The notes under the pieces were generated by a model that saw only the letters and a program-made list of their open reading frames with translations, was not told the origin of the DNA and made no database searches. A stretch of 32,000 nucleotides of DNA from assembly GCA_963704755.1 (NCBI GenBank), contig OY969938.1, positions 3,000,001-3,032,000 on the forward strand, in the 5' to 3' direction. Position numbers and translations under genes: made by a program. This document shows positions 3,757 to 32,000 of this stretch, one piece after another; the stretch's first letter is position 1, and each line of letters opens with the position of its first letter. The DNA comes from an uncultured Chloroflexia bacterium (GTDB taxonomy: Bacteria; Chloroflexota; Anaerolineae; Anaerolineales; Anaerolineaceae).

Positions 3757-3975
3757 AGAGCTCCTTTTGTGTGTACGTTGTATCGATCGATGTTCCCCCA
3801 CCCATCCGAAAATGGAAGCCTGTTTGTGATGGCTCCGTACCGGCTTCTTTTCCACAGGTAGCCAGAATCAAAAACAGGCTTGACCAAACCCTGGAGGCAA
3901 GCCTATCTCTACCATGGTATTTATTAAGATGAGGGTCAGAAGTATCGGAGTCCGAATTCATGGATAACGTTCAGG

Positions 3976-4046
3976 CTGGGGCGCCTGGATTCGAACCAAG
4001 ATCCACAGATCCAAAGTCTGGTGTGCTGCCGTTGCACCACGCCCCA
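3976..4046 (-). tRNA. tRNA-Gln (anticodon UUG), no encoded CCA
   Basis: Minus strand reads TGGGGCG TG GTGC AACGGCA GCAC A CCAGA CTTTGGA TCTGT GGAT CTTGG TTCGAAT CCAGG CGCCCCA G. This gives a cloverleaf with a 7-bp acceptor stem, a U1-A72 pair with G73 (typical of bacterial tRNA-Gln), a TTCGAAT T-loop, and anticodon loop CUUUGGA. Confidence 0.9.
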
Positions 4047-4185
4047 ATGTGGCTGTATAGCCCCAAAGCGCCCCTTATTTTTAACACAAAAATTGAATTT
4101 GTCCGAGGTCTGGTTCACAGGTTGTTAACGGTTAGATTCTTTCCTTGTTTTCTTGGAAATGCTCGGCCCAATGGGTAAAAGCTTC

Positions 4186-4234
4186 GAAATAGAGGTGTTT
4201 GCGAGGGCGAAGCCCTCGCAAACACCTCTATTTC
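4186..4234. terminator. Perfect 23-bp-stem hairpin at the 3' end of the TerC-family gene (putative terminator)
   Basis: gaaatagaggtgtttgcgagggc-gaa-gccctcgcaaacacctctatttc. The stem overlaps the TAG stop at 4228-4230. There is no clean T-tract, so terminator function is inferred from position only. Confidence 0.45.
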
Positions 4235-8256: not shown

Positions 8257-10309
8257 GACGCTGCGCCGCTGGCTCCGGCGTCCGCTGGATGACCGCCTGG
8301 TTCCATTGTTGCTGCTGGTGCTGGCCTTTCTGGCTTATGGCCTGTTGTTCCTCTGGCAGGGATATTACTGGGACGACTACCCGCTCACCTGGACTGCCCA
8401 TACCTTCGGCCTGGCCGGCCTGGCGCGCTATTTTTCCACCAACCGGCCCTACTGGGGGCTGCTCTACCAGCTTTCCAACAGCCTGTTGAGCGCCCAACCC
8501 TGGCAGTGGCAGTTGTTCGCCCTGTTCTGGCGCTGGGCCGCCTCGGTGACCTTCTGGCTGGCGCTGCGGCGCCTGTGGCCCGGCCGCCGTTCGACCACTA
8601 CCCTGGCGGCGGTGGCCATTTTGCTTTACCCGGGCTTCGGCCAGCAGGCCATCGGCATGGTGTATGGGCATTTCTTCCTGGTGCTGACGGCTTTCCTCTT
8701 TTCGATCTACGCCAACCTGCGCGCCTTGGCCGGACGGCGGGCAGCCTGGGCCTGGACGCTGGCTGCCCTGGCGGCCTCATTCCTCAACCTGATCACCCTG
8801 GAGTATTTTTTTCTGCTGGAGCTGATCCGCCCGGTATGTATCTGGCTGGTCAATAAAGGCGACAAACGCGGGAAAGAACGCCTCAAGTCAGCATTTTGGG
8901 CATGGCTGCCTTACCTGGTGCTGTTCCTCGGGGTGGGCCTGTGGCGGGTCTTTTTCTTTACCTACCAGACCAACAACTATGCCCCCAGCGGACTGGCGAC
9001 GCTCAAGGCCGCGCCGCTGGCCGGGTTGATCCAGTTGATTGGGCGGGTATTCGGCCAGGCAGCCCTGGCCGGTTTCGCGGCCTGGGCCAAACCGTTCACA
9101 TTTTCCTTCCTGGCCGGGTTGGGCAAAGCCAATACGCTCATCTACCTGGCGGTTGGCCTGGCCGGCGCCGCTTTGACTGCCCTGGCCCTGTGGAAGCAGG
9201 CCCATGAGACCGCCGGCCTGGAAGGCCGGCGCCGCACCGCGCTGGAAATGGTTGCCCTGGGGTTATTTATCCTCTTGATCGCCGGCGGCCCATTTCTCCT
9301 GACCGGCCTGCCGGTTAAACTGGTCTTCCCCAACGACCGCTTTACCCTGCCTTTTATGGCCGGGTCGGCGCTGGTGCTGGCCGGGCTGGCCCACTGGATT
9401 CTGCCGCGCTTCAAAGGGCTGCGGGTGGGCCTGCTGGCGCTGCTGCTGGGGCTGAGCTGCGCTTACCTGTTTGCCAACAGCACTTCCTATCGCCGCGATT
9501 GGCTCACCCAGCGGGCCTTCTTCTGGCAGCTCACCTGGCGCGTCCCCCAGTTGCAGCCCGGCACTACCCTGATGTCCAACGACCTGCCGGTGAGCTACTA
9601 CAGCGACAACTCGCTCAGCGCGCCGCTCAACTGGATCTACGCCCCTCAGAACCAGACCGAGGAGATGGACACGATCTTGCTCTACCCCTCCCTGCGGGTG
9701 GGGCTGCCTGAACTGCCCTCGCTCGACCCGGGCACACCCATTCACATCGATTACCTTTCGGCCCAGTTCGACGGCAGCACCGACCAGGTGGTGGCGCTGT
9801 ATTACCAGCCGCCGGCCTGCCTGCGCATCCTCGACGGGCAGGTGGAGGCGGATAACCTGTTCGTGCCCCTGCAAATCCGCTCGGTCGCGGCCAGCCTGAG
9901 TTCGACCCGCTGGATTATCCCCGACCTGGCCCAGTCGGCCGCGCCGATGGCAGAGTATTATGGCAGCGAGCCGGCCCATGGATGGTGTTATTATTACGAG
10001 AAAGCCGACCTGGCCCGCCAGCAGCAGGATTGGCAGCAGGTGGTGACCTTGGGCGACCAGGCCTTTAGCCTGAACGATTATCCCAATGATCCGGCCGAGC
10101 GCATGCCGTATATCGAGGGGTACGCTCACCTGGAGCGCTGGGGGGATGCCCTGGAGCAGACTCGCCTGGCGGCGGACGTTTCGCCGGTCATGCGGCCGGT
10201 ATTGTGCAGCTTGTGGCAGCGCATCGATACCCAAACCGGGGCGAGCGCGCAAAAACAAGCGGCTGTCCAGCAGGTGGATGAACTGCTGGCCTGTAACACG
10301 CAAAAGTGA
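8249..10309 (+). CDS. GT-C-fold membrane glycosyltransferase candidate (ArnT/PMT-like) with a soluble C-terminal domain
   Basis: I place the start at the ATG at 8249 (MIETLRRW...), which overlaps the GT2 stop by 8 nt. About 470 aa contain many hydrophobic helices. An acidic YYWDDYPL motif follows TM1, as in GT-C enzymes. The C-terminal ~200 aa are hydrophilic and helical-repeat-like. The assignment rests on architecture, not a search. Confidence 0.6.
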   Translation: MIETLRRWLRRPLDDRLVPLLLLVLAFLAYGLLFLWQGYYWDDYPLTWTAHTFGLAGLARYFSTNRPYWGLLYQLSNSLLSAQPWQWQLFALFWRWAASVTFWLALRRLWPGRRSTTTLAAVAILLYPGFGQQAIGMVYGHFFLVLTAFLFSIYANLRALAGRRAAWAWTLAALAASFLNLITLEYFFLLELIRPVCIWLVNKGDKRGKERLKSAFWAWLPYLVLFLGVGLWRVFFFTYQTNNYAPSGLATLKAAPLAGLIQLIGRVFGQAALAGFAAWAKPFTFSFLAGLGKANTLIYLAVGLAGAALTALALWKQAHETAGLEGRRRTALEMVALGLFILLIAGGPFLLTGLPVKLVFPNDRFTLPFMAGSALVLAGLAHWILPRFKGLRVGLLALLLGLSCAYLFANSTSYRRDWLTQRAFFWQLTWRVPQLQPGTTLMSNDLPVSYYSDNSLSAPLNWIYAPQNQTEEMDTILLYPSLRVGLPELPSLDPGTPIHIDYLSAQFDGSTDQVVALYYQPPACLRILDGQVEADNLFVPLQIRSVAASLSSTRWIIPDLAQSAAPMAEYYGSEPAHGWCYYYEKADLARQQQDWQQVVTLGDQAFSLNDYPNDPAERMPYIEGYAHLERWGDALEQTRLAADVSPVMRPVLCSLWQRIDTQTGASAQKQAAVQQVDELLACNTQK

Positions 10310-10328
10310 ATTTTTGTAAAAAGAATTT

Positions 10329-10423
10329 AACCACGGAGGACACGGAGTTTTAAGAAATTAATTTGGGAGAGGAATTTTTTAACTAATTCTTTCTTTCCTC
10401 CGTGCCTCTGTGTCTCCGTGGTG
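10329..10423. repeat. Imperfect inverted repeat of the ccacggagg/ctccgtgg family flanking an AT-rich spacer
   Basis: aaccacggaggacacggag (10329-10347) faces ctccgtgcctctgtgtctccgtggtg (10398-10423). Same family as 121-160 and 7115-7188. It lies between the GT-C gene and galE. Confidence 0.6.
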
Positions 10424-10461
10424 TATTTTGTGGTTTATTTTGTCTTTTTTTGGAGGATGTC

Positions 10462-11476
10462 ATGAAATTTTTGATCACCGGTGGGGCGGGGTATATCGGC
10501 AGCACGATCGCATCGGCTATGTTGGATGCCGGGCACACGCCCATTATTCTGGACAGTCTGGCGACCGGCAAGGCCGAGTTTACCCTCGGGCGCACTTTTT
10601 ACCGGGGCGATGTGGCCGATGTGGCCTTATTGGAAAAGATTTTCAGCGAACACCCGGATATCCAGGCCACCATTCACTGCGCGGCCTTGATCGTGGTGCC
10701 CGAGTTCGGTCGAGCGGCCGTATGAGTATTACACCGAGAACGTGGCCAAATCGCTGACCCTGTTCCATACCCTCAACCGCCTGGATTACAAACGGGTGCT
10801 GTTCAGTTCCTCCGCTTCGATTTACGACATGGTGCCCGATTTCATGGTCACCGAAGAAGCGCCGCTGAATCCGTCCAGCCCGTACGCCCGCACCAAGTAT
10901 ATGATGGAAATGATTCTGCGCGATTTCTGCATTGGCTATGGCATGCAGGGCATCGCTTTGCGCTATTTCAACCCCATCGGGGCCGATCCCAAGATGCGCA
11001 CCGGCATCCACGTCGAGCGGCCCTCGCACGTGCTGGGCAAGCTGGTCGATGTGGCCCTGGGCAACCTGCCCTATTTCGAGCTGACCGGAGTCGATTGGCC
11101 CACCCGCGATGGCAGCGGCATCCGCGATTTCATCCATATCTGGGACCTGGTGCAGGCCCATCTGGCGGCTGTGCTGGATTTCGACGGGGCCTTCGCACGG
11201 GCCGGCAACCCGGCCGACAATTACCTGGTCATCAACCTGGGCACCGGCCGGGGGGTGACCGTGCGTGAGCTGGTGACGGCCTTCGAACGGGTGTATGGCA
11301 AGCACATCCCATTGAAAGAGATGCCGCCCCGTCCCGGTGACGTGGCCGGCGCCTACGCCAACGCCGATAAAGCCGCGCGGGTCCTGGGTTGGAAAGCACA
11401 AAAGTCCACCGAAGAAGCCATTGCCGACGCGCTCAAATGGGGCGAAGCCCGCAAGAATATTTTAGGATACGCATAA
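10462..11476 (+). pseudogene. galE: UDP-glucose 4-epimerase, split by a 1-nt frameshift near 10705-10706
   Basis: ATG at 10462 follows GGAGGA. The N-terminus reads MKFLITGGAGYIGS ... HCAALIVVPE and then hits a stop. Removing one T from gagTTcggtc restores PESVERPYEYYTENVAKSLTLFHTL, which joins in frame to track ORF 10742-11476. That part carries SSSASIY, YARTK (YxxxK) and the RYFNPIGA motif. Confidence 0.85.
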
Positions 11477-11492
11477 AACAGGGTATGGAATA

Positions 11493-11547
11493 CCCGGAAA
11501 AGATCAGGCCGCAGCGGCAAAGCCGCTGTGGCCTGATCTTTTCCGGG
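11493..11547 (+). terminator. Long hairpin downstream of galE (putative terminator)
   Basis: cccggaaaagatcaggccgcagcgg-caaag-ccgctgtggcctgatcttttccggg. Stem of about 25 bp with one G-T pair. A T-run lies in the descending arm. Confidence 0.6.
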
Positions 11548-11701
11548 ATACTTTCGCGGGACAATAGCCATAATCAATTATCTGTTGCATCCCCTGGCCA
11601 AATCCATTATCCTTTAAATAATAATCGTAGCAAAGCGTCTTCTGTTTAGCAGAATTGCCAAACAGAGACGCAGACCACCTTGTCCGCGGTGGAGATTAAT
11701 T

Positions 11702-12784: not shown

Positions 12785-13153
12785 TTACAGCCCCCAACTG
12801 ACGACCCGTTTGGGGTGGATGCGGAACATTTCGTTATCAAAGTCGGGACGGACGGTTTGCCCACCGGTCACCAGGACCTCGACTTCCCCACGTACTTCGA
12901 GGCCGCGGGCACGCCAGGGATTGGTCGAGGCCACATCGTCCACCACGAAAGCCACCCTGGGATTGGTTTGCGCATCGTGAAATTTTTTGCGTTCGGCAAA
13001 GTGATGTCCACTGACGTCGATGGTATCCAGTTCAGGATTAAACCGAAACGCGACCGGAACCACGTGCGGTTGGCCGTTCGGACCGACCGTGGCAAGGCGG
13101 CCTAACATCTGGTTTTGTAAATATTCAATCTGGGCAGGAGAAAAAGCGCTCAT
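12785..13153 (-). CDS. PPOX-class (pyridoxamine 5'-phosphate oxidase-like), probably F420-dependent, small oxidoreductase
   Basis: LGRLATVGPNGQPHVVPVAFRF, KFHDAQTNPRVAFVVDD and GLEVRGEVEVL are typical of the split-barrel PPOX family. 122 aa. Confidence 0.75.
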   Translation of the reverse strand: MSAFSPAQIEYLQNQMLGRLATVGPNGQPHVVPVAFRFNPELDTIDVSGHHFAERKKFHDAQTNPRVAFVVDDVASTNPWRARGLEVRGEVEVLVTGGQTVRPDFDNEMFRIHPKRVVSWGL

Positions 13154-13270
13154 GGCAACCTCGTATTTTTCTTTCAGTATAGCCAGACACGCAGCCGAGT
13201 CCTAGCCGGACAAATGGGCAGGGGTGAGATCATTTTATTGGCTGGAAGGTTCACGTAAAGGAGTACAGCG

Positions 13271-13699
13271 ATGGCGGAGTTGAAAACAAAACCTACCGAA
13301 GAAAATGTCGAAAGCTTTCTGAATGGAATTTCCGACGAGAAAAAGCGCCAGGATAGCTTGGTCATCCTGGAATTGTTCAAGAAAATCACCCAAAAAGAGC
13401 CGCGCATGTGGGGCAGCAGCATCGTTGGCTTTGGCCATTACCATTATCATTACGATAGCGGCCGGGAAGGGGATTGGTTCGTGACCGGTTTTTCGCCCCG
13501 CAAGGATGCGATTACGCTCTACCTGGTGTACGGCCTGGAACGTTTCGATGACTTGATGAGCAAATTGGGTAAATATAAAACCGGCAAAGCCTGCTTATAC
13601 ATCAAAAAAGTCGAAGACATTAATCTGGACGTGCTCAGCGAGTTGATCAAGCGATCGGTGGAGACGATGAAGATGAGGCAACTCGGGCTGAAAACCTAA
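13271..13699 (+). CDS. DUF1801 (YdhG-like) domain protein
   Basis: KPTEENVESFLNGISDEKKRQDSLVILELFKKIT..PRMWGSSIVGFGHYHYHY.SGREGDW matches the DUF1801 pattern. AGGAG RBS. The TAA stop at 13697-13699 abuts the first repeat unit. Confidence 0.7.
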   Translation: MAELKTKPTEENVESFLNGISDEKKRQDSLVILELFKKITQKEPRMWGSSIVGFGHYHYHYDSGREGDWFVTGFSPRKDAITLYLVYGLERFDDLMSKLGKYKTGKACLYIKKVEDINLDVLSELIKRSVETMKMRQLGLKT

Positions 13700-14210
13700 G
13701 CGAGTCTCCAGCCCCCCCGGCTTTGAAAGCCGGGCTACATGCTAACCGCGTTTTGGGATGGTAGCTCGGGTTTCTAACCCGAGAGGTATCACCAGGATTC
13801 CGGTTTAACAAAAGCGGATATGCCGGCCGGGATGTGGGCTCGTTTCCGAATCCAAGTGAGTCTCCAGACCACCCGGCTTTGAAAGCCGGGCTACATGCTA
13901 ACCGCGTTTTGGGATGGTAGCTCGGGTTTCTAACCCGAGAGGTATCACCAGGATTCTGGTTAAACAAAAACGGATATGCCGGCTGGAGTGAGGGCTCGGT
14001 TTTAGAATCCAAGCGAGTCTCCAGACCCCCCGGCTTTGAAAGCCGGGCTACATGCTAACCGCGTTTTGGGATGGTAGCTCGGGTTTCTAACCCGAGAGGT
14101 ATCACCAGGATTCTGGTTAAACAAAAACGGATATGCCGTCCTGGAATGGCGGCTCGGTTTTCAATCCCAAGCGAGTCTCCAGCCCACCCGGCTTTGAAAG
14201 CCGGGCTACG
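13698..14210 (+). repeat. Tandem array U: 3 full + 1 partial copies of a ~157-bp composite REP unit
   Basis: Units start at 13698, 13854, 14011 and 14169 (partial, 42 bp). Each begins aagcgagtctccag..cccggctttgaaagccgggCTAC-22 nt-GTAGctcgggtttctaacccgag-aggtatcaccaggattctggtt... The units are near-identical to each other. Confidence 0.95.
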
Positions 14211-14267
14211 CAAATTCCGATCCGAAAAATTGATTTCGGTTTGGTTGGACTAATATAAAATTTGTTT

Positions 14268-14789
14268 ATGTCCAAATATCACCGTTATTATTTGCCTAAT
14301 TCTTCGGTTTTTATCACTACCGTTACACGCAAACGAGAACCTATTTTCGAAACGCCCGCAAATCAAGAACTCTTTCTGCAAGTCGCGGAAAATGTTAAGT
14401 GCCTCTATCCATTCGATTTAGATGCCTATGTAATCATGCCTGACCATGTACATATGTTGCTTTCCCTTTTGGAAGGTTCATCTAATTTCTCTGTGATTAT
14501 CCATAGCCTGAAACGGAACTTCTCTTGGGAATACAAAAAACTATGGAATATTTCAGGCTCCGTAAGGATTTGGCAAGAAAGATTTTGGGACCATTTAATT
14601 CGGAATGAAACAGATTATGAAAGGCATATGGATTACATCCATTACAATCCGGTAAAGCATGGGCAGGTGAAGTCGCCCAGTCAATGGATATATAGCAGTT
14701 TCAATTTTTGGGTCAATAAAGAGGTTTATCCCATGTATTGGGGAGATGATCAAGTGCCAGGAAATCTTAAAGGGGCCGAATGGGGATGA
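14268..14789 (+). CDS. REP-associated tyrosine transposase (RAYT / TnpA_REP; IS200-like Y1 HUH enzyme)
   Basis: HUH motif in VIMPDHVHMLLSL. RAYT-typical C-terminal block WQERFWDHLIRNETDYERHMDYIHYNPVKHGQV, with the catalytic Tyr in YIHYNPV. About 173 aa. Single gene with no TnpB partner, flanked by REP arrays. I prefer the ATG at 14268; the track starts at TTG 14262. Confidence 0.9.
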   Translation: MSKYHRYYLPNSSVFITTVTRKREPIFETPANQELFLQVAENVKCLYPFDLDAYVIMPDHVHMLLSLLEGSSNFSVIIHSLKRNFSWEYKKLWNISGSVRIWQERFWDHLIRNETDYERHMDYIHYNPVKHGQVKSPSQWIYSSFNFWVNKEVYPMYWGDDQVPGNLKGAEWG

Positions 14790-14838
14790 GTTTTGTGGAT
14801 GCCGGAGATCGTTTGGGGAGAGCATAAGGTTGAATCCC

Positions 14839-15476
14839 AAGCGAGTCTCCAGACCTCCCGGCTTTGAAAGCCGGGCTACAAACGGACACGCTATGGAATG
14901 GTAGCTCGGGTTTCCAACCCGAGGGGTATCACCAGGATTTTGGTTTAACAACAGCGGATATGCCGGCCGGAATGAGGGCTCGTTTCCAAAACCAAGCGAG
15001 TCTCCAGACCTCCCGGCTTTGAAAGCCGGGCTACAAATGGACACGCTATGGAATGGTAGCTCGGGTTTCCAACCCGAGGGGTATCACCAGGATTTTGGTT
15101 TAACAACAGCGGATATGCCGGCCGGAACGAAGGCTCGTTTCCAAAACCAAGCGAGTCTCCAGACCTCCCGGCTTTGAAAGCCGGGCTACAAATGGACACG
15201 CTATGGAATGGTAGCTCGGGTTTCCAACCCGAGGGGTATCACCAGGATTTTGGTTTAACAACAGCGGATATGCCGGCCGGAACGAGGGCTCGGTTTTAGA
15301 ATCCAAGCGAGTCTCCAGACCTCCCGGCTTTGAAAGCCGGGCTACAAACGGATACGCTATGGAATGGTAGCTCGGGTTTCCAACCCGAGGGGTATCACCA
15401 GGATTCTGGTTTAACAACAGCGGATATGCCGACCGGAACGATGGCCTGTTTTCCGAATCCAAGCGAGTCTCCAGAC
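14839..15476 (+). repeat. Tandem array D: 4 full + 1 partial copies of a ~155-bp composite REP unit (sub-family distinct from array U)
   Basis: Units start at 14839, 14994, 15149, 15305 and 15461 (partial, 16 bp). Same architecture and orientation as array U. It has its own spacer (aaa[c/t]gga[c/t]acgctatggaatg) and a different REP loop (tttccaac). Confidence 0.95.
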
Positions 15477-15913
15477 TTCGTTCCCCCTTGTTGAAGCTGC
15501 GAAGAATTTTCGGGCCCATCTCCATCGCCATGAAAGAATGGATTTCTAGAAATTCGTCGCGTATCGGGATTTCTTCGCATCCTCGAAAGGGGGAATGGCG
15601 CGTCGTTTCTTGCCCCCTTCGTAAGGGGGGTGGGGGATTCTTGAATTGGCCTGAGAACCAGCCAATTAGATTAAGTGTTCTTTTTTGATTTTCACTAAAG
15701 CCGGGTTGCTGATTTTGAACCAAAACCAACTCTGATTCGACATACCCATGGCGATACCTTTTTGGCGTTTACCGCGTATACATTAAAGTTCCATTAACTC
15801 AGGCTTATGATTCATTTAATGACCGGTTTGGTCATCATCCCATCGGAAGGGTTGCGTTATAATAAAATACGAAGGATGGAGGCAATTGAACCTCCATCGT
15901 TTAGGCTTAAGCG

Positions 15914-16558
15914 ATGATCCAACAAGTCACGGACATGTTACGGGAATTCTGGTTTTCGATGTTGACGCCCCAGGCGATACTGCCCCATTTGTGGCTGTAC
16001 CTGACCCTGGTGGTTTTGGTTATGCTGGAAGGCCCTGTATCCATTCTGGTTGCTGCTGGGGCCGCCTCAACCGGGTTCTTGAACCCGCTGCCGGTGCTGA
16101 TCGCCGCCACATTGGGCAATTTGATCGCCGATGCTTTGTGGTACAGCCTGGGTTATTTCGGAAAAATCGATTGGGTACTGAGCCGCCGCAGGTGGTTTGG
16201 TGTGGACCCACAAAAACTTAAATCATTGAAGGGGATCATCAATCGTTACGCCGTCAGGCTGCTGATCTTTGCAAAAGTCACCAATGGCTTGATCGTCCCG
16301 GTGTTGATCTCGACGGGAGTGGCACGCGTATCCTGGCGACGCTGGTTCCCTATAATTCTGGTTACGAACATTCTGACGAGCATTGCAATGGTGTTGATCG
16401 GATTTTTCATGGCATCCAGCTTACTCCACGTTCAGCAGGGCATTCGTTATGTGGCTATTGCCTCCACGCTGGTTCTGCTGTTAGGCGGATATTTTCTGTT
16501 TCGACGTTTGCTAAGCCGCAGCGACTTGCTCGCCTCGCTCGAAGGCCAGAACCAGTAA
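15914..16558 (+). CDS. DedA/VTT (SNARE-associated) family membrane protein
   Basis: 214 aa with multiple TM helices. LEGPVSILVAAGAASTGFLNPLPVLIAATLGNLIADALWYSLGYFGK resembles the DedA core re-entrant region. Confidence 0.65.
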   Translation: MIQQVTDMLREFWFSMLTPQAILPHLWLYLTLVVLVMLEGPVSILVAAGAASTGFLNPLPVLIAATLGNLIADALWYSLGYFGKIDWVLSRRRWFGVDPQKLKSLKGIINRYAVRLLIFAKVTNGLIVPVLISTGVARVSWRRWFPIILVTNILTSIAMVLIGFFMASSLLHVQQGIRYVAIASTLVLLLGGYFLFRRLLSRSDLLASLEGQNQ

Positions 16559-19312: not shown

Positions 19313-20308
19313 ATGTCAGAATTGCTCAATGTACAAGGCCTGGAAACACAGTTTAATACCAGAGAGGGAATGGTCCATGCCGTTAACGGCGTTTCCTTCA
19401 AGCTGGACGAGGGGGAGACTTTAGGCATCGTAGGCGAAAGCGGCTGCGGGAAGAGCGTAACCGTCATGTCTATGCTGCGCCTGATCCCAACACCACCGGG
19501 AAAAATCGTCGCCGGTCAGGCTTTTTTTCAAGGCAAAGACCTGTTAAAAATGTCGGACGATGAGATTCGCCAGGTACGCGGTTCTCAGATCAGCGTGGTT
19601 TTCCAGGACCCGATGACTTCATTTAATCCGGTCATGACAATCGGCCGCCAGGTGGCCGAGCCGCTGGAAGTCCACCTGGGGATGAAACCCAAAGAGGCCG
19701 AACAGCGGGTGATCGAAATGCTGACCAAAGTGGGCATTCCTAATCCGGCCGACCGGTTGGACAATTACCCGCACCAGTTTTCGGGCGGTATGCGCCAGCG
19801 GGTGATGATTGCTATGGCATTGGTCTGCGCACCGCAGTTGCTGATTGCCGACGAACCAACCACCGCCCTGGATGTGACCATTCAGGCTCAAATCGTGGAG
19901 TTGGTCAAACGTCTGCGGGATGACCTGGGAATGGGCATCATCTGGATCACCCATGACCTGGGCGTGATCGCCGGGCTGGCCGATCGCCTGGCGGTGATGT
20001 ACGGCGGTTTCATCGTCGAAACTTCGACGGTGGGCGATCTTTACCACCACCCCTCCCATCCGTATACCCTGGGACTGTTGGGCAGCCTGCCCCGGGTGGA
20101 TAAAGGCGTCAATCAGCGCCTGGTATCCATCGAAGGGCTGCCGCCGGTCTTGTTGCAAAAGCCTCATTTTTGCCCGTTTGCCCCCCGCTGTAGTTATGTA
20201 CGCGAGCGTTGTTGGAATGAAAATCCGCCTTTGATTGAGGTGGAACCCGACCACTATTCAGCCTGCTGGGTAGAGCCTGAAACCGGGAGAGAACGTGATG
20301 CCATCTGA
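19313..20308 (+). CDS. Oligopeptide/dipeptide ABC transporter ATP-binding protein, OppD/DppD type
   Basis: Walker A GESGCGKS, signature FSGGMRQR, Walker [14 protein letters not shown]-loop ITHDL. C-terminal oligopeptide-transporter extension with Cys residues (CPFAPRC...C). Confidence 0.9.
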
Positions 20309-21278
20309 TGAAGCCATCCTGAGGGTCGAAAACCTGGTCAAATATTTTCCGATCTTGCAGGGGATCATTTTCCAGCGTGAGGTCGGGGCAGTCCATGCCG
20401 TGGACGATGTGTCTTTCGATGTTGTTCGGGGGGAAACTTTAGGTCTGGTGGGCGAATCGGGCTGCGGCAAATCGACGACCGGACGGGTGATCTTGCAGCT
20501 TTACCGGCCAACTTCCGGGAATGTCTATTTCGATGGGACCAACCTGGTCACGCTTCAAGGCGAAGCCCTGCGAAAAATGCGCAAACGCATGCAGATGATC
20601 TTCCAGGATCCGTATGCCAGCCTGAACCCACGCATGACCGTCGGACAGATCATTGGCGAACCCATGTTCATTCACGAGTCGATGAGCCGCAAGGATGTTA
20701 AGGAAAAAGCCGAGAACCTGCTGCAACTGGTGGGGCTGAACCCGGCTTACACCTCGCGTTACCCGCACGAATTTTCGGGGGGCCAGCGCCAGCGGATTGG
20801 CATTGCCCGGGCCCTGGCGCTCAACCCGGACCTGATTGTGTGTGATGAGCCGATCTCGGCCCTGGATGTTTCGGTGCAGGCCCAGGTGGTCAACCTGCTC
20901 GAGGATCTGCAAGCCCAGTTCAACCTGACCTACGTATTTATTGCGCACGACCTATCGATGGTGCGACATATCAGCAGCCGGGTAGCCGTGATGTACCTGG
21001 GCGTCATCGTGGAGTTAGCCGCGCGCGATGAGCTCTACGAGCATCCGCTGCATCCGTATACTCAGGCGCTCATGTCGGCCGTGCCCATCCCGGACCCGAC
21101 CGTCGAAAACCGGCGCCAGCGTACCATCCTGGTGGGCGACGTGCCCTCCCCGATCAACCCGCCTTCGGGCTGCCGTTTCCGTACCCGCTGCCCGCTGGCC
21201 GACAAAATTTGCGCCGAACAACGCCCCGAATTCCGCGAGCTCGCCCCCGGCCATTGGGTGGCCTGCCACATGGTGTAG
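20298..21278 (+). CDS. Oligopeptide/dipeptide ABC transporter ATP-binding protein, OppF/DppF type
   Basis: [41 protein letters not shown], and C-terminal [14 protein letters not shown]. The start overlaps the upstream stop (GTG 20295 or ATG 20298). Confidence 0.9.
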
Positions 21279-24379: not shown

Positions 24380-25162
24380 ATGCATAAACGCAGCTTCGTA
24401 ATCTTGACAACCGTTGCCGGATTGTTGGGAATTCTTTTTTTGCTAGGTCTACCCCAGGGAGTTTCCCCGCAAGCGCAAATCGTATACCAGACACCTACGG
24501 CGAACGCCGATGGACTCATACAGTACACGGTCAAAGCAGGGGATACCTGCATTAGCATCTCACTGCTTAATCAGATAGACCTGAATGAATTGCGCCTGTT
24601 GAACAACCTGGATGAAAACTGCAGTTTAAATGCGGGCCAAAAACTGTTGCTCGCCACCGTTTCTCCCCAATCTTCCTCCGCGGCGGTTACCCCCTCGCCG
24701 ACCGCTCCGCTTCAATCGCCTACCCCCTTCGAGGGCAATGCCATGGTTTGCGTTGCGCTTTTCAATGACGTCAACGGAAATGCGATGGCCGATACGGATG
24801 AAACAGCCTTGCCTGGTGGGGTGATCAGCCTCACCGACCGGACCGGCCAGGTCTCGCTGACCGGCAATACCTCCGACAGCCTGGCTGAACCCACCTGTTT
24901 CAAGGATATCAAAGAGGGTGACTATAATATCAGCGTAGCCGTGCCCGAAGGCTATAATGCCACGACTCAGTTGAACCAGGCGCTGACCCTGGCGGCCGGC
25001 GACACGACCACGATCGATTTTGGCGCCCAGTTGAGCTCGCAAGCCGCCCCGACGCCGGTTTCGGAAGGTGGCCGTTCCCCCATTCTGGCGATCCTGGGCG
25101 GGTTGGTCATCCTGGCCGGATTGGGAATCGGGATTTATGCACGCCTGTTCAACCGGCGTTGA
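24380..25162 (+). CDS. LysM-domain protein with N-terminal signal/anchor, a beta-sandwich-like middle domain and a C-terminal TM helix
   Basis: LysM motif YTVKAGDTCISISLLNQIDLNELRLLNNL...LNAGQKLLL. S/P/T linker. FNDVNGNAMADTDE... resembles SdrD-B/Cna-type folds. C-terminal ILAILGGLVILAGLGIGIYARLF. Confidence 0.75.
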   Translation: MHKRSFVILTTVAGLLGILFLLGLPQGVSPQAQIVYQTPTANADGLIQYTVKAGDTCISISLLNQIDLNELRLLNNLDENCSLNAGQKLLLATVSPQSSSAAVTPSPTAPLQSPTPFEGNAMVCVALFNDVNGNAMADTDETALPGGVISLTDRTGQVSLTGNTSDSLAEPTCFKDIKEGDYNISVAVPEGYNATTQLNQALTLAAGDTTTIDFGAQLSSQAAPTPVSEGGRSPILAILGGLVILAGLGIGIYARLFNRR

Positions 25163-26513: not shown

Positions 26514-27563
26514 CTAGATGACATCCTCGATGACCTGGCGCAGGGCCGGTAAGTCGAGGTCTTTCTTGTCCAGGAAGGCGATTGCTCCGGCCTCCAGGCC
26601 CAGGCGGTGAAATTCCCGGTCGGGGTAGGCGCTGATCAGGATGACCCGGATGGTTGGATAGAGCGCCTTGATCTGGCGCGTGCAACTGATGCCATTCTCT
26701 TCACCCAGAACCACATCGATAAAGACGAGGTCGGGCATGGTCTCCTGGATCATGTGCAGGGCCGAGTGGATGTTGTCCGCTTCATAGATCCAGGCGTTCG
26801 GACAGGCCTTGCCGATGATATTCTGCAGCAATTCGCGGAACCGGCCATTATCGTCGACGACCATGACCGAGATGCGCTCGGACTCTTTCACCGGGCCGGC
26901 CGGCTTTTGCGTGGCCTGTTGGCCGGGTATGCCCAATAGCTGGGTGTGGCGTAAGATATAATTCATCGCCTCCAGGCGGCTTTGGACGTTGAGCACCCGG
27001 TAAAGCCGGGTCAGGTGGTTTTCGACCGTTTTGACGCTCAGCCCCATTTCGGCCGCGATGGTCTGGTTATCCTTGCCGTCTTTGAGCTGGTGCAGCAAAT
27101 CTCTTTGGCGGCGGGTGAGAAAAGGCGTGTGGGTGAAGCCGTGCGGATCGCCGATCAGTTTGTTGATAATCGGCGGCGATAGCCAGATTTCGCCGGCCAG
27201 GACGCGCTCGATCGCTCTTTTCAGGTCGTTGAGCGGCTGGTCTTTGAGATGGTAGCCATTGACACCCGCACTGAGCATGCCCTGGACGTAAATATCGTCG
27301 TCGTATGCGCTGACGACCAGGATCTTCATCTGGGGGTAGTCTTTACGAATGCGCTGGATGGCCGATATGGGCTCGAAGTCGGGCATCGTGACGTCGATTA
27401 AAAGGATATCGTAGCTGGCTTTACTGAGGACATCAAAAAGCTGCGGGCCGTTGGCGGCTTCGGTAGCCACCATCATTCCCGGGATTTCTTCAATTGTCTT
27501 GCGAATACCAGTACGGACGACCGCGTGATCGTCAGCGAGGAGAACAGAGATTTGCTCTGGCAT
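26514..27563 (-). CDS. NarL/LuxR-type response regulator with a second, C-terminal receiver domain (REC-HTH-REC)
   Basis: REC1: LLADDH, LLIDVTMPD, VVSAY, YHLKD. LuxR HTH: LTRRQRDLLHQLKDGKDNQTIAAEMGLSVKTVENHLTRLYRVLNV. About 25-aa linker. REC2: VVDDNG, VFIDVVL, ILISAY, AFLDKK. Confidence 0.85.
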   Translation of the reverse strand: MPEQISVLLADDHAVVRTGIRKTIEEIPGMMVATEAANGPQLFDVLSKASYDILLIDVTMPDFEPISAIQRIRKDYPQMKILVVSAYDDDIYVQGMLSAGVNGYHLKDQPLNDLKRAIERVLAGEIWLSPPIINKLIGDPHGFTHTPFLTRRQRDLLHQLKDGKDNQTIAAEMGLSVKTVENHLTRLYRVLNVQSRLEAMNYILRHTQLLGIPGQQATQKPAGPVKESERISVMVVDDNGRFRELLQNIIGKACPNAWIYEADNIHSALHMIQETMPDLVFIDVVLGEENGISCTRQIKALYPTIRVILISAYPDREFHRLGLEAGAIAFLDKKDLDLPALRQVIEDVI

Positions 27564-27757
27564 GTATAATTTATACCACTTCCGCAGTTTATGCTACAAT
27601 GGGATTCCAGGATATATCAAAACCTGTATATGTTCGCAGAAGGTCTGCAGCAAATTTGTTTGGGTTGTGTATGGAAGTGTGCCAGGTGCGTTTCCAAACA
27701 TAACCCATATTTACTAATCGCCAATATTCTCAGGTCGGCCAATCAGGTTGAAATTCT
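27564..27757. promoter_or_regulatory. Divergent control region between the regulator and the ABC-domain kinase gene
   Basis: 194-bp AT-richer spacer. It has TATAAT at 27566-27571 and TGcTACAAT at about 27590-27598 on the + strand. On the - strand, TATAAA ends 6 nt before the regulator ATG, which would allow a leaderless mRNA. These are motif matches only. Confidence 0.3.
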
Positions 27758-28735
27758 ATGGAACCCCTGCTTCGAGTAGTCAATCTTTGCAAACGGTTCG
27801 ATACTTTATCTGCTGTGGAGGGAGTGAGTTTCGACATCAGACCGGGTGAGGTGGTAGGCCTGGCCGGGAATATTGGATCCGGGAAATCGGTGTTGGTCAT
27901 GCTTTTGGCCGGCCTGTATGGGGCTACCCACGGGGATATTTATTTCGCCGACAAGCTGCTGACCTGGCCCTTCAACGCCGGAAAACTGGGTATCGGTGTG
28001 ATCCACCAGAAGCCGACCTTGAACGACGAGATGGATATTTCGACGAGCATCTTTTTAGGCAACGAGCTGGGTTGGCCGGCCGGGTTAGGACCGCTGCGCA
28101 TCCTTGACCGCCGCAAAATGGACAAGGAAGCCAAGCGCATTTTAAATGAGGTGGGCGTAAGCGTTCCCTCGCTGCGTGAAAAAGTAGCCAGCCTTTCCGG
28201 TGAAAAGCGCCAGATGATTGCCATTGCCCGGGTGTTGACCCACCCGGTTCGTTTTGTCTTGATCGATGAAGCCACCAGTTCGCTCACCTATCCTTATCAG
28301 CAAAAACTGTTCGAGTTGATCCAGGAGTGGCGCCGCCAGGGGGTGGCGGTGCTGTTCAGCAGCAATAACCTCGACCATCTTTTCGCCGTCACCGACCGTA
28401 TCATTACGTTGTTCCACGGCCAGAAGATCGCCGATGTGCGCACCGATGAGACCAGCCGGGACGCGATCGTTTCCTATCTGCTTGGCTCCGGCCGGCCGGA
28501 AGGTGTCAGCGCGACCTTGCTGGACCTGGGTAATTACGACCGCATCCGCGAGCAGGCGGAGCGCATGCGTTATTACAAGATCTTGCTGGAAAAAGACCTG
28601 GCCTCCCAGAATGCGCTGAACTACCAGTTGGTGGGGCAGCTTAGCGAGCACGTCCAGGCCGCCGACCGGGCTAACAAAGCCCTGCAGGAGGCTCACCGCC
28701 GGCTGATCTCAGAGCGGGAGCAAGAGCGCAAATGA
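27758..28735 (+). CDS. ABC-transporter ATPase (NBD)-like domain + coiled coil; N-terminal part of a frameshifted histidine kinase
   Basis: Resembles the N-terminal half of RbsA/MglA/GguA sugar ATPases. Walker A GNIGSGKSV, Q-loop IHQ, signature LSGEKRQ, Walker B FVLIDEATSSL. The H-loop His is replaced (SSNN). About 80 aa of heptad-like helix follow, ending ...HRRLISEREQERK, where a HisKA_3 helix normally begins. Confidence 0.8.
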   Translation: MEPLLRVVNLCKRFDTLSAVEGVSFDIRPGEVVGLAGNIGSGKSVLVMLLAGLYGATHGDIYFADKLLTWPFNAGKLGIGVIHQKPTLNDEMDISTSIFLGNELGWPAGLGPLRILDRRKMDKEAKRILNEVGVSVPSLREKVASLSGEKRQMIAIARVLTHPVRFVLIDEATSSLTYPYQQKLFELIQEWRRQGVAVLFSSNNLDHLFAVTDRIITLFHGQKIADVRTDETSRDAIVSYLLGSGRPEGVSATLLDLGNYDRIREQAERMRYYKILLEKDLASQNALNYQLVGQLSEHVQAADRANKALQEAHRRLISEREQERK

Positions 28736-28748
28736 CCTGGCCCGCGAG

Positions 28749-29363
28749 TTGCACGACCAGGTCATCCAGGACCTTTTCAGCATCAATTACCAACTCGAGT
28801 GCCTCGAGGTAGAGCAAGAGATTATGCCGCCACTGCGGGATGAACTGGCGGACGTGCGCACGTCTATCCGCGAGATCGTCAGCAGCCTGCGCCAGGTTTG
28901 CGGTGAGCTGCGCCCACCCACGATTGACAGCCTGGGGCTGGGGGCAGCCTTGCTTTCCTACAGCCGCGACTGGTCGGAACGCAACAACATCGAGGTCATC
29001 CTGGACATCGACCCTAAGCTGGGCCGCCTGCCGGAAGCCACCGAGCTGTCCATTTTTCGCATTGTCCAGGAAGGCTTGAACAACGTCAAGCGGCATGCCA
29101 GGGCCAGTAAGGTGTATATTAAAATGGTCCATACCACCCCGCGGATGTTATCGCTTTCCATTGCCGACGATGGAATTGGCATCGACGAGGGGCTGGATAT
29201 AAACAGCCTGGCCGGTGAACGGCATTATGGCCTGCTCGGGATCAGTGAGCGGGTGGCCTTATTAGGAGGCAGAATCCGGATCACCCGCCAGCCCGAAGGC
29301 GGTGCCGATTTGCAAATTGAAATTCCACACCCACGTGTCAGGGAAAAAGCGCTCTCCGCTTAG
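28749..29363 (+). CDS. HisKA_3 + HATPase_c histidine-kinase core (NarX/DegS/LiaS type); C-terminal part of the frameshifted gene
   Basis: This frame is open upstream to 28731 and reads NDLARELHDQVIQDLF (H-box). N-box IVQEGLNNVKRHA, G1 DDGIGI, G2 GLLGISERV. There is no RBS, TM segment or sensor domain of its own, and the track's TTG start lies inside the H-box helix. Confidence 0.8.
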   Translation: MHDQVIQDLFSINYQLECLEVEQEIMPPLRDELADVRTSIREIVSSLRQVCGELRPPTIDSLGLGAALLSYSRDWSERNNIEVILDIDPKLGRLPEATELSIFRIVQEGLNNVKRHARASKVYIKMVHTTPRMLSLSIADDGIGIDEGLDINSLAGERHYGLLGISERVALLGGRIRITRQPEGGADLQIEIPHPRVREKALSA

Positions 29364-29811
29364 GGGAAATCCCCCTATACCACTGGGGGGAAAAGGGGAT
29401 AAGCCGGCGGACAGCTTTTGTTATACTTCGCCCGTACATGCTCGCTAAATCAGGTACGGAAATGGACTAGTTCAAGTCCGGTCGAAGTGCTGGTTGTGGA
29501 GCGTCCCAATTATTAAATATCTTCTCCAAAAGAAAAAATAAGCGACCCTTTTCGATCTTTTTGCCATTTCCTTTATGGGGGATGAAAAACTGGTGAAAAC
29601 GATTTTCTCTTGTTGTTTCGCTTGTGAATGAAATTTCGGCTGAGCTCGTGGCTTTTCTGTTGGTTACAACATAGTAAGGCTGGCAAGTGCAGGTGATATT
29701 CCATGATGGGAGGAGGTGGTCAATCGAATAAATACGCATCTTCCGACGCCACGTGCCGGATCGTTCCGGCCTGGTAATTCGTCCGCAACCATATTCTAAG
29801 GAGAAGAAAAT

Positions 29812-32000
29812 ATGTCTAAGAAGTTGGTGTACAGCCTATTAGCTGTATTCATGATTGCAGCGACTCTGCTATCTGCTTGCAGTACCCCCGCCACAACTGT
29901 AGCGCCGACGGCTGCATCTGCTGGTACGTCTTCGACCGAGGTTTCAGCGCCCGGTGGTCAACTGGCTGTAGGTATTGTTCTGCCTACCAAAGACGAACCG
30001 CGCTGGATCCAGGACCAGACTCGTTTCCAGGATGCTCTTACCGCAGCCGGATACAATGTGGAGATCCTCTTCAGCCAGGGTGACTCGGCCAAGGAAAAGA
30101 CCAACGTCGAATCCTTGCTGGCCAAGGGCATCAAAGTGCTGATTATCTGCCCGCAGGACGGTAACGCAGCGGCAGCAGCAGTAGAAGAAGCCAAGCAGGC
30201 CGGCGTGAAAGTCATCTCGTATGACCGCCTGATCACCAACACCGACGCGGTCGATTACTATGTGACCTTCGACAGTGTAGCCGTGGGTGAGAAACAGGGC
30301 CAGTACCTGGTTGACCACGCCACCGGAACGGGCAACCCGCTGTACCTGTATGCCGGGGCTGCCTCCGATAACAACGCCTTCCTGTTCTTCCAGGGGGCCT
30401 GGAACGTACTGCAACCCAAGATTGCGGATGGCACCTTCGTGATCAAGAACTCCAGCGCGGCCGTAGCCGTACAGGACAAAGCCGAACTGACTCGTGACGA
30501 AGAAGCCAGCATCATCGGGCAGGTCACCACGAACTGGGACTTCAACACGGCCAAGAACCTGGCCGAGGCCAACCTGACCTCCGCCACCGCCGCGGACAAA
30601 GGCAACGTCTTCATTCTGGCCCCGAACGATGGCACCGCTCGCTCCATCGCGGACGCCTTCGCGGCTGACAAAGACGTGACCAGCTACATCGTGACCGGGC
30701 AGGATGCCGAGAAAGCCTCCGTCCAGTACATCATCGACGGCAAGCAGTCCATGACCGTGTTCAAAGACGTGCGCACCCTGGTCAACGACGCCATCACCAT
30801 GGCCGTCGCCCTGCTGCAAGGCCAGACCCCTGCGACCACCGGCAGCTACAACAACGGTGCGATCGACGTCCCGGCCAAGCAGTCTGAGGTCATCAGCGTG
30901 GACAAAGACAACGTCCAGTCCGCCCTGATCGACTCGGGTTACTACTCCGCCAGTGACTTCACCGGTTTGACCGGCTCCACCACCGAGCCCACCGCTGCTC
31001 CGCAGTCCAACGCCCCCGGCGGTCAACTGGCCGTCGGTATCGTTCTGCCTACCAAAGACGAACCGCGCTGGATCCAGGACCAGACTCGTTTCCAGGATGC
31101 CCTCCAGGCAGCTGGATACGATGTGGAGATCCTCTTCAGCCAGGGTGACTCGGCCAAGGAAAAGACCAACGTCGAATCCTTGCTGGCCAAGGGCATCCAG
31201 GTGTTGATTATCTGCCCGCAGGACGGTAACGCGGCGGCAGCAGCAGTGGAAGAAGCCAAGCAGGCCGGCGTGAAAGTCATCTCGTATGACCGCCTGATCA
31301 CCAACACCGACGCGGTCGATTACTATGTGACCTTCGACAGTGTAGCCGTGGGTGAGAAACAGGGCCAGTACCTGGTTGACCACGCCACCGGAACGGGCAA
31401 CCCGCTGTACCTGTATGCCGGGGCTGCCTCCGATAACAACGCCTTCCTGTTCTTCCAGGGGGCCTGGAACGTACTGCAACCCAAGATCGCGGATGGCACC
31501 TTCGTGATCAAGAACTCCAGCGCGGCCGTAGCCGTACAGGACAAAGCCGAACTGACTCGTGACGAAGAAGCCAGCATCATCGGGCAGGTCACCACGAACT
31601 GGGACTTCAACACGGCCAAGAACCTGGCCGAGGCCAACCTGACCTCCGCCACCACCGCGGACAAAGGCAACGTCTTCATTCTGGCCCCGAACGATGGCAC
31701 CGCTCGCTCCATCGCGGACGCCTTCGCGGCTGACAAAGACGTGACCAGCTACATCGTGACCGGGCAGGATGCCGAGAAAGCCTCCGTCCAGTACATCATC
31801 GACGGTAAGCAGTCCATGACGGTGTTCAAGGACGTGCGCACCCTGGTCAACGACGCCATCACCATGGCCGTCGCTCTGCTGCAAGGCCAGACCCCTGCGA
31901 CCACCGGCAGCTACAACAACGGCGCGATCGACGTCCCGGCCAAGCAGTCTGAGGTCATCAGTGTGGACAAAGACAACGTCCAGTCCGCCCTGATCGACTC
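29812..32000 (+). CDS. ChvE-like (PBP1 family) sugar-binding lipoprotein with tandemly duplicated binding modules; 3' end beyond the window
   Basis: Absent from the ORF track because no stop lies in the window; I translated it by hand. AAGGAGAAG RBS, MSKKLVYSLLAVFMIAATLLSAC lipobox, then GIVLPTKDEPRWIQDQ...VISYDRLI...DYYVTFDSVAVGEKQG...DNNAFLFFQGAW...VTGQDAE..SVQYI..GKQSMTVFKDVR, which follows the ChvE / multiple-sugar-binding protein layout. The module then repeats. Confidence 0.85.
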   Translation, partial: MSKKLVYSLLAVFMIAATLLSACSTPATTVAPTAASAGTSSTEVSAPGGQLAVGIVLPTKDEPRWIQDQTRFQDALTAAGYNVEILFSQGDSAKEKTNVESLLAKGIKVLIICPQDGNAAAAAVEEAKQAGVKVISYDRLITNTDAVDYYVTFDSVAVGEKQGQYLVDHATGTGNPLYLYAGAASDNNAFLFFQGAWNVLQPKIADGTFVIKNSSAAVAVQDKAELTRDEEASIIGQVTTNWDFNTAKNLAEANLTSATAADKGNVFILAPNDGTARSIADAFAADKDVTSYIVTGQDAEKASVQYIIDGKQSMTVFKDVRTLVNDAITMAVALLQGQTPATTGSYNNGAIDVPAKQSEVISVDKDNVQSALIDSGYYSASDFTGLTGSTTEPTAAPQSNAPGGQLAVGIVLPTKDEPRWIQDQTRFQDALQAAGYDVEILFSQGDSAKEKTNVESLLAKGIQVLIICPQDGNAAAAAVEEAKQAGVKVISYDRLITNTDAVDYYVTFDSVAVGEKQGQYLVDHATGTGNPLYLYAGAASDNNAFLFFQGAWNVLQPKIADGTFVIKNSSAAVAVQDKAELTRDEEASIIGQVTTNWDFNTAKNLAEANLTSATTADKGNVFILAPNDGTARSIADAFAADKDVTSYIVTGQDAEKASVQYIIDGKQSMTVFKDVRTLVNDAITMAVALLQGQTPATTGSYNNGAIDVPAKQSEVISVDKDNVQSALID
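29950..32000 (+). repeat. In-frame tandem duplication, period exactly 1065 bp (355 codons), inside the binding-protein gene
   Basis: ggtcaactgg occurs at 29956 and 31021; gactc occurs at 30931 and 31996. My manual alignment of 29950-30935 with 31015-32000 gives about two dozen substitutions and no indels, most of them in the first ~250 nt. Confidence 0.95.

Follow-up and report, generated by a model that had tools for sequence, protein, structure and literature searches.

In the Bce modules of Bacillus subtilis (BceRS-BceAB), the histidine kinase senses through an ABC transporter in a mode known as flux sensing (PMC4513084, PMC10314905), while in the SLC5/STAC kinases CbrA, CrbS and RpuS a transporter module is covalently fused to the kinase as its input (PMC9100948, PMC7096432, PMC5715377). 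In the pairs VirA-ChvE, XylFII-LytS, LuxP-LuxQ and TorT-TorS, the binding protein touches the extracytoplasmic domain of a transmembrane kinase, and the 2021 review of binding-protein signalling mentions no relay mediated by an ATPase or a nucleotide-binding domain (NBD) (PMC8050422). Here we analysed a stretch of 32,000 nucleotides from an uncultured Chloroflexia bacterium (contig OY969938.1, positions 3,000,001 to 3,032,000; hereafter the window), in which positions 26514-32000 carry a response regulator, a histidine kinase fused to an N-terminal ABC-type NBD, and a sugar-binding lipoprotein. Full-text searching of the literature found no description of an NBD-fused histidine kinase. Related arrangements of transporter and sensor are known: in the UhpABC system of Escherichia coli the transporter homologue UhpC is the receptor for the HisKA_3 kinase UhpB, and importer NBDs report their conformational or occupancy state to the kinase PhoR in PstSCAB-PhoU-PhoR and to the transcription factor MalT in MalK-MalT. 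To our knowledge, the SLC5/STAC kinases are otherwise the only ones known to have a transporter module covalently attached.

The window kinase shares features with each of these systems and departs from all of them. As in the Bce modules, a kinase without a sensing domain of its own would rely on an ABC transporter complex and have a transporter operon as its target. The likeness is one of logic only. BceS, a membrane protein in its own right, has two transmembrane helices and contacts the FtsX-type permease BceB, BceA is separate and active, and the substrates are antimicrobial peptides handled without a binding protein; the window kinase is soluble, has no transmembrane helix and carries a covalently attached degenerate NBD, and its family is linked at the gene level with BPD_transp_2 sugar permeases and binding proteins of the Peripla_BP_4 type. 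In the SLC5/STAC kinases the fused part is the membrane domain of a sodium/solute symporter, attached via a STAC domain. Pfam found neither an SLC5 nor a STAC domain on the window kinase, where the fused part is instead a cytoplasmic NBD of the kind found in primary ABC importers, and the permease must still be supplied by a separate protein. As in ChvE-VirA/GguAB, a ChvE/XylF-type Peripla_BP_4 protein seems to work for an importer and for a two-component sensor alike, but unlike VirA and the LytS-type kinases the window kinase has no extracytoplasmic domain. The Uhp system offers a parallel, its NarL-class kinase having as receptor a transporter paralogue that does not itself transport, and UhpB itself is among the NCBIfam matches to the window kinase core; UhpC, however, is a protein of the major facilitator superfamily, UhpB is membrane-embedded and no NBD takes part. 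In Pst and Mal, an NBD that takes an active part in transport is bound by a regulator that is a separate protein, whereas the NBD studied here is catalytically degenerate and belongs to the kinase polypeptide itself.

As assembled, the kinase gene is spread over two reading frames of the forward strand. The first open reading frame (ORF, 27758-28735, 325 amino acids) terminates in TGA after …SEREQERK*, and the kinase core runs on in the other frame, which reads NDLARELHDQVIQ and contains the ORF 28749-29363 (stop codon 29361-29363). Deletion of one base at 28730-28736 gives a protein of 534 amino acids that carries ABC_tran, a coiled coil, HisKA_3 and HATPase_c in this order. Pfam detected on it only the three domains, all scoring above their gathering cut-offs: PF00005 at 81 bits (residues 21-174, cut-off 25), PF07730 at 54 bits (residues 323-387) and PF02518 at 39 bits (residues 429-525), just the succession that the original prediction had expected of the frame-corrected polypeptide. 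The NBD occupies 27758-28489 and is followed by a family-specific helical linker, a predicted coiled coil, that leads at 28490-28723 from the NBD to the helix of the dimerization and histidine phosphotransfer (DHp) domain. The kinase core spans 28724-29363 and comprises HisKA_3 (28724-28919; phospho-acceptor histidine codon 28752-28754) and HATPase_c (29043-29333). Its sequence aligns to the NarL-class kinases MctS, UhpB, LiaS and NarX in NCBIfam, and the boxes LARELHD, QEGLNNV, DDGIG and GLLGISERV are conserved in the family, with the H, N and G boxes kept throughout. No transmembrane segment was found in the kinase, the Kyte-Doolittle maximum over 19 residues being 1.56, at the P-loop strand, so that the HisKA_3 and HATPase_c profiles and the lack of a spanning segment agree with the NarL-class core without membrane anchor that had been proposed for it.

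To place the window kinase among its relatives, the corrected protein was used as query in a protein search and the best 120 clusters were taken. All but one of these (119/120) were single polypeptides of 529-572 amino acids with ABC_tran and HisKA_3, nearly all of them with HATPase_c as well, which came from Anaerolineae and other Chloroflexota metagenomes and were 59-71% identical to the window kinase. The sole exception was the window's own 325-amino-acid ORF, on a contig of 4.87 Mb, and among the proteins searched no relative was closer to the window kinase than 71% identity. Apart from these, scanning genomes, one for each GTDB species, gave 80 loci (numbered with L below, as clusters are with P), all of which match the query from residue 1 to about 527-534; the frame is uninterrupted in 79 of them and frameshifted in L027, a related long-contig metagenome assembly. 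As more than 230 Chloroflexota metagenome clusters bear the NBD and the kinase domains on one unbroken polypeptide, the fusion is real, and the two parts are not separate genes in related genomes. The family consensus over the junction of NBD and kinase is SEREQERKHLARELHDQ, and the reading frame that passes uninterrupted through the H-box in the relatives is broken in the window. Codon by codon, seven relatives have AAA CAC/CAT CTG GCx where the window has AAA TGAC CTG GCC, that is, one extra base, and three-frame translation places the resulting TGA (28733-28735) inside the H-box.

The identification of the N-terminal domain as an ABC NBD is borne out by Pfam and NCBIfam profiles, by its predicted fold and by structural matches. 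In NCBIfam, residues 1-243 align to the N-terminal half of the CUT2 ATPases XylG, AlsA, AraG, RbsA and GguA, with scores far under the full-length equivalog cut-offs of these models, and the domain is thus a single NBD of the CUT2 N-half or single type. In the AlphaFold2 monomer model, whose confidence is limited to the NBD and some of the kinase core, the NBD blocks have pLDDT values mostly of 70-94. Its top Foldseek matches are ABC NBDs (TM 0.76-0.85), and PhnK of C-P lyase is found among the fold matches. The helices predicted in the linker (residues 259-277 and 285-317) have low pLDDT in this model, as may be expected when a dimeric coiled coil is modelled as a monomer. The linker holds a conserved motif directly after the NBD (family consensus P.iW..DsY.r.Re.aE), and an exhaustive search with the linker segment alone returned 28 representative clusters at E<=1e-10, a compact family.

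In the window NBD, Walker A (GNIGSGKS, 27866-27889), the glutamine of the Q-loop (HQ, 28007-28009) and Walker B (LIDE, 28253-28270) are present, while SSNN (28358-28369) stands in place of the H-loop histidine and LSGEK (28193-28207) in place of the LSGGQ signature. The domain had been described as a complete NBD that had lost the H-loop histidine; the intact Walker A, Q-loop and Walker B and the missing histidine were confirmed, but the signature is degenerate as well, so that, as a catalytic NBD, the domain is incomplete. This pattern was compared between 65 kinases of the loci and the neighbouring transporter ATPases, of which 35 are tandem ATPases, whose N- and C-halves were treated apart, and 23 have a single NBD. 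The Walker A lysine is present in 65/65 kinases and the glutamine of the Q-loop likewise; among the 119 clusters of the window's own subfamily (subfamily 1), which repeat the motif pattern of the 65 locus kinases, the lysine is found in 117 and the glutamine in all. Both residues are kept in the neighbouring N-halves and single NBDs, with arginine replacing the lysine in 32/35 C-halves and glutamate replacing the glutamine in 34/35. The aspartate of Walker B occurs in every one of the 65 kinases and in 92/93 neighbouring ATPase domains, and the catalytic glutamate in 59/65 kinases, in the neighbouring N-halves and single NBDs, and in 30/35 C-halves. The H-loop position is occupied by asparagine in 61/65 kinases and by histidine in none, against histidine in 35/35 N-halves and in 22 of the 23 single-NBD ATPases. 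Similarly, the second glycine of the signature is glutamate in 64/65 kinases, in 113/119 subfamily-1 clusters and in 118/118 clusters of a second subfamily, and is glycine or alanine in each of the 93 neighbouring ATPase domains. Also conserved within the kinase NBD are the Q-loop and the CUT2-typical segment 'NIFLGNE' that follows it.

For an ABC ATPase to hydrolyse ATP in the closed sandwich, it requires the H-loop histidine and the glycines of the signature, HlyB H662A and CFTR G551D being examples of substitutions at these positions. As both are lost in the kinases while the binding motifs are kept, the kinase NBD is predicted to bind ATP and probably hydrolyses it little or not at all. 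We also considered that the NBD might be a recent copy of a neighbouring ATPase, which was rejected at identities of only ~28-37% to the single NBDs and N-halves and ~24% to the C-halves.

The genes around the kinase were surveyed in the 44 loci that extend 5 kb or more to each side of it, counting genes within 6 kb of the kinase; ORFs of the loci were called and clustered, and representatives were confirmed by Pfam. A BPD_transp_2 permease was present in 39/44 loci, a Peripla_BP_4 binding protein in 38/44, another ABC ATPase in 36/44 and the REC-GerE-REC regulator in 35/44, and not a single locus lacked all transporter parts (0/44). By our rough estimate, linkage to a permease by chance would be about 10% in a genome with a few dozen such permeases. 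The linkage to sugar-transporter genes, on which the original prediction had depended, is therefore strongly conserved.

Gene order around the kinase tracks its phylogeny. In clade 1 (~34 loci, with the full gene series resolved in about 20) the divergent regulator and the kinase are followed by the binding protein, a tandem ATPase (~506 amino acids) and a permease (~394-414 amino acids), which is the order seen in the window; in L079, a locus of this type, the permease lies at 7276-8460. Clade 2 has the divergent regulator and then, on the kinase strand, a permease (~324 amino acids), a binding protein and the kinase, after which comes a complete second importer or a CUT1 operon. In clade 3, a permease (~340-360 amino acids), a binding protein and the kinase adjoin a complete ChvE-type importer, and in clade 4 the kinase ends an importer operon made up of a binding protein, a single-NBD ATPase (~256 amino acids) and a permease (~413 amino acids). 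Clade 5 is characterized by a regulator, a permease (~340 amino acids) and the kinase in one direction, often divergent from an operon of binding protein, ATPase and permease, with one binding-protein gene between the transporter operon and the sensor operon. For three subfamily-2 loci and the locus of cluster P0001, independent gene calls and precomputed Pfam matches agree with these assignments.

In about 30 of the 80 loci, a permease of 320-361 amino acids lies in the kinase operon without an ATPase of its own, often together with a binding-protein gene that ends 3-4 nt upstream of the kinase. This is also the arrangement of P0001 (locus L087), at 71% identity the closest relative of the window kinase, where a BPD_transp_2 permease (324 amino acids), a Peripla_BP_4 protein (330 amino acids), the kinase 4 nt downstream and a CUT1 binding protein follow each other, the first three at 872-1846, 1879-2871 and 2875-4479; no ATPase gene was called on its 6.5-kb contig, on which two end genes are without Pfam annotation. 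Some loci with such a dedicated permease are flanked only by a CUT1 operon without an ATPase gene (L007, L087), and in L007, L087, L022 and L032 permease, binding protein and kinase occur with no other ATPase. In a neighbour-joining tree, the 22 ATPase-less permeases upstream of kinases cluster apart from the permeases that follow an ATPase gene. The dedicated permeases keep a conserved cytoplasmic loop, RYIYaLG.sErALlvsGV, at the position where the transporters have RyiYAvGGNpEAAelsGI; this may correspond to the EAA-like loop through which RbsC-type permeases couple to their NBD, a point to which we give low weight. The binding proteins of these loci carry lipoprotein signals.

The window kinase is nearest to clade 2 by sequence (70-71% to P0001, L001 and L011) and falls with clade 1 by gene order. 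Regulator and kinase are separated in the window by a divergent spacer of 194 bp (27564-27757), the place where its closest relatives hold the permease and binding-protein genes. There is no CUT2 permease within the window, the binding-protein gene being cut by its end; judging from the relatives, the genes of a tandem ATPase and a permease are expected beyond 32000 in this genome.

The regulator (26514-27563, minus strand, 349 amino acids) is transcribed divergently from the kinase and was found by Pfam to contain Response_reg twice (142.8 bits) and GerE (54 bits). The matching NarL/LuxR-type regulator that had been assigned to the kinase is indeed its conserved neighbour. Its 55 orthologues (330-380 amino acids; L001-L080) always have the unusual order REC, GerE/LuxR helix-turn-helix and REC, and both REC domains keep the DD pocket, the phospho-acceptor aspartate, the serine or threonine and the lysine. 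As these residues are kept in both, both REC domains may be phosphorylated, and the second could serve as a phosphate sink or as a second input. Promoter and terminator scans of the locus stayed near background, with one weak promoter-like site on the minus strand at 27620-27591, and no Rfam element was found near the locus. The 448-bp spacer 29364-29811 upstream of the binding-protein gene is presumed to be the regulated promoter region.

The binding-protein gene (29812-32000, plus strand) encodes a lipoprotein with the signal …LLSAC (lipobox cysteine codon 29878-29880) and Peripla_BP_4 at 313.8 bits in two stretches. NF040907, the ChvE model, matches best (269 bits; cut-off 460), and XylF follows (199 bits; cut-off 390); the protein had been called a ChvE-family lipoprotein, of which the lipobox and ChvE as best model hold, but with the score under the equivalog cut-off we describe it as a ChvE/XylF-like CUT2 sugar-binding lipoprotein. 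The duplication that had been noticed in it is evident as two tandem Peripla_BP_4 modules in one ORF (29947-30933 and 31012-31998), which by self-BLAST are 97.5% identical at the DNA level over 987 nt. Doubled binding proteins occur in at least 12 other genomes (L017, L019, L021, L057, L061, L062, L065, L068, L074, L082, L084 and L086), and that of L050 may have three copies. Within genes the copies are 90-99.9% identical at the DNA level, and the closest orthologue of the window protein, the doubled protein of the clade-1 locus L021, shares 82% protein identity with it. As copies are near-identical within genes and orthologues far more diverged, repeated duplication or gene conversion of the modules is suggested. 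Antisense to this gene lies an ORF of 646 amino acids (29944-31884, minus strand), which was rejected as a gene and regarded as a GC-rich artefact; antisense ORFs of its family (F9) face the orthologues in other loci.

With regard to function, we consider it fairly probable that the locus encodes a two-component system whose kinase uses its catalytically degenerate NBD as the input, docked on a CUT2 permease and relaying the occupancy of the binding protein. The kinase dimer would present its two NBDs to the cytoplasmic face of a CUT2-type (BPD_transp_2) permease, in the seat usually taken by the ATPase. On binding of the sugar-loaded extracellular ChvE/XylF-like lipoprotein to the permease, the change transmitted from permease to NBD (NBD closure), which normally triggers hydrolysis, would follow; the NBD would bind ATP with poor or no hydrolysis, and its motion, passed through the coiled coil to the DHp helix, would alter autophosphorylation. 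The phosphoryl group would then be transferred to the REC-GerE-REC regulator, which would control the adjacent sugar-importer operon. In many relatives the partner would be the dedicated ATPase-less permease paralogue of the kinase operon, and in the window, if the kinase is functional, it would be that of the ChvE-type importer next to it, whose gene is expected just past 32000. For any extracellular signal to reach the kinase, a relay across the membrane is needed, because the binding proteins are lipoproteins and the kinase has no transmembrane helix. Support for docking comes from the many relatives, P0001 included, in which genes of a permease without ATPase and of a binding protein immediately precede that of the kinase, and the strongest argument for it is that the kinase NBD is the only NBD available to the dedicated permeases in their operons. 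The physical contact of NBD and permease, the direction of signalling and the regulatory targets are the parts of this scheme that we infer.

Several observations weigh against this docking scheme. Only seven kinase positions split kinases with a dedicated permease from those without, and they are spread evenly and not gathered in the presumed coupling region (Q-loop and helical subdomain), although this says little either way. No orthologue of the dedicated permease from the window's own 4.87-Mb contig was found among the 120 best matches (61-77% identity), no convincing operator-like inverted or shared repeats that would point to the targets of the regulator were found in either intergenic region, and the window kinase gene carries an in-frame stop after the frameshift. 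A distant member of the family, P0138, has lost even Walker A, and ATP binding may thus not be essential. Furthermore, in the arrangement of the window (~34 loci) the importer already has a full tandem ATPase, so that the permease would be shared, or contested, between it and the kinase NBD. This last point would also suit an NBD that acts in the cytoplasm as a sensor of ATP/ADP energy state or as an ATP-dependent dimerization switch, with no permease contact and with the transporter genes as mere targets; so would the retention of nucleotide-binding motifs beside the loss of catalytic ones, and NBDs without a role in transport do exist on soluble partners, PhnK on C-P lyase among them. We regard such a switch as improbable, as it leaves unexplained why an ATPase-less permease and a binding protein fill the slot of an importer ATPase in ~30/80 loci and why the glutamine of the Q-loop and the CUT2-type segment behind it are conserved. 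Still less probable is that the fused NBD is a hydrolysis-dead pseudo-ATPase which competes or pairs with the importer NBD and throttles uptake, the kinase part being secondary. Change of the signature glycine to glutamate together with loss of the H-loop histidine would impair both ATP sites of any NBD dimer, and in clade 4 the kinase gene does follow a single-NBD ATPase (~256 amino acids) and a permease in one operon; but the neighbouring single-NBD and tandem ATPases are fully canonical and need no extra partner, the four loci without another ATPase leave nothing to throttle, and the high conservation of kinase core and regulator favours signalling as the selected function.

The window copy of the kinase raises a question of its own, which is compatible with any mechanism of the family, namely whether the frameshift is real, the gene a true pseudogene and the system silent. 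The assembled TGA splits the H-box, the permease and binding-protein genes found between regulator and kinase in the closest relatives are missing, and the lack of a close orthologue of the dedicated permease on the same contig, within the matches stated above, points in the same direction. Yet the lesion is a single indel, both halves are otherwise free of stops, with every catalytic box intact and 60-71% identity to intact relatives, and the order of regulator, kinase and binding protein occurs with intact kinases in ~34 loci. In L027, several frameshifts typical of indel errors lie in the orthologous kinase (10001-11700) and in neighbouring genes, among them the adjacent permease, which demonstrates that such errors do occur in comparable assemblies. 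The break in the window is hence either a sequencing error or a very recent inactivation, an assembly indel being more likely than a true pseudogene, and we hold the silent pseudogene to be unlikely. For the window copy, the reading as one polypeptide rests on the correction of one base and on the intact relatives. A reading of the two ORFs in the assembled sequence as independent genes, one for an ordinary transporter ATPase and the next for a kinase unrelated to it, is effectively excluded. The stop sits inside the conserved H-box, and two functional genes would not be viable because the second ORF would start one codon before the phospho-acceptor histidine, without most of DHp helix 1. Moreover, split copies are confined to frameshifted assemblies (L027 and the window ORF) while the relatives have one polypeptide, and an NBD without the H-loop histidine and without a canonical signature does not fit a normal transporter ATPase.

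The family to which the kinase belongs is large and uncharacterized, and falls within transporter-coupled two-component sensing. All 80 loci of the genome scan belong to Chloroflexota, namely to Anaerolineae, Caldilineae, Ardenticatenaceae and Roseiflexaceae, with L029 from a metagenome-assembled genome assigned to Anaerolinea thermophila. Public databases label the proteins no more precisely than 'ATP-binding cassette domain-containing protein' or 'signal transduction histidine kinase'. The same domain order, for which a database search had been proposed, is present in two subfamilies of Chloroflexota clusters. Subfamily 2 comprises ~118 clusters (P0271-P0388, P0139 and P0144) of the same architecture, ~44% identical to the window protein, in which the catalytic glutamate is changed to aspartate or asparagine in 113/118 and the H-loop position is aspartate in 115/118; its loci L082, L084 and L086 have the REC-GerE-REC regulator, a doubled binding protein, a tandem ATPase and a permease. 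Besides, the weaker matches of the linker search yielded other fusions of the NBD and the divergent P0138. P0159 (L081) and P0188 join a related N-terminal ABC domain, with still more degenerate NBD motifs, to GAF-HisKA-HATPase_c, and P0151 joins a related NBD, which keeps an LSxEQ signature and has no H-loop histidine, to MalT-type TPR and a LuxR helix-turn-helix. P0151, which would act as a one-component regulator, is represented by a single sequence on a contig of 2 kb (the contigs of P0151 and P0159 measure 2-2.5 kb) and could be a rare recombinant or a chimera.

These fusions suggest that the ABC domain is a portable signalling input. As the same kind of NBD is also fused to GAF-HisKA and to MalT-TPR/LuxR outputs, we tentatively put forward that the scaffold of an ABC importer, with binding protein, permease paralogue and hydrolysis-dead NBD, may have been turned into a non-transporting receptor, a general 'ABC receptor' input module; if true, this would be a signalling principle not yet described. 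Transporter-coupled sensing is known by two routes, a separate kinase that contacts the transporter (Bce, Pst/PhoR, Uhp) and the fusion of the membrane domain of a secondary transporter (CbrA/CrbS), to which the NBD-fused kinase would, if the docking scheme is true, add a third, and the coupling of permease to NBD in ABC importers would then be usable for signalling instead of hydrolysis. The family also offers a natural experiment, as Walker A, the Q-loop and the Walker B aspartate are kept against the loss of the H-loop histidine and the signature glycine, a split between what an NBD requires for coupling and what it requires for catalysis. In sediments, soils and digesters, Anaerolineae and related Chloroflexota rank among the main degraders of carbohydrates, and their genetics has been little studied. 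The kinase family is abundant among them and is likely to be a sugar-sensing regulator for many of their ABC sugar-uptake loci.

The remainder of the window holds housekeeping genes. Upstream of the locus, a secreted or membrane-anchored protein with LysM and SdrD_B-like domains is encoded at 24380-25162 (plus strand), with no evident link to the signalling system. Two adjoining oligopeptide-type ABC ATPase genes (19313-21278, plus strand; ABC_tran and oligo_HPY; 331 and 327 amino acids) are preceded by a GT4 glycosyltransferase and are without a neighbouring permease or binding-protein gene in the window. The sole Rfam match in the window is a tRNA gene at 3976-4046 (minus strand). The region 13000-16000 has a GC content of 45-51% against ~58% elsewhere and includes an IS200-like (Y1_Tnp) transposase ORF at 14262-14789 (plus strand), and this dip may mark a small insertion.

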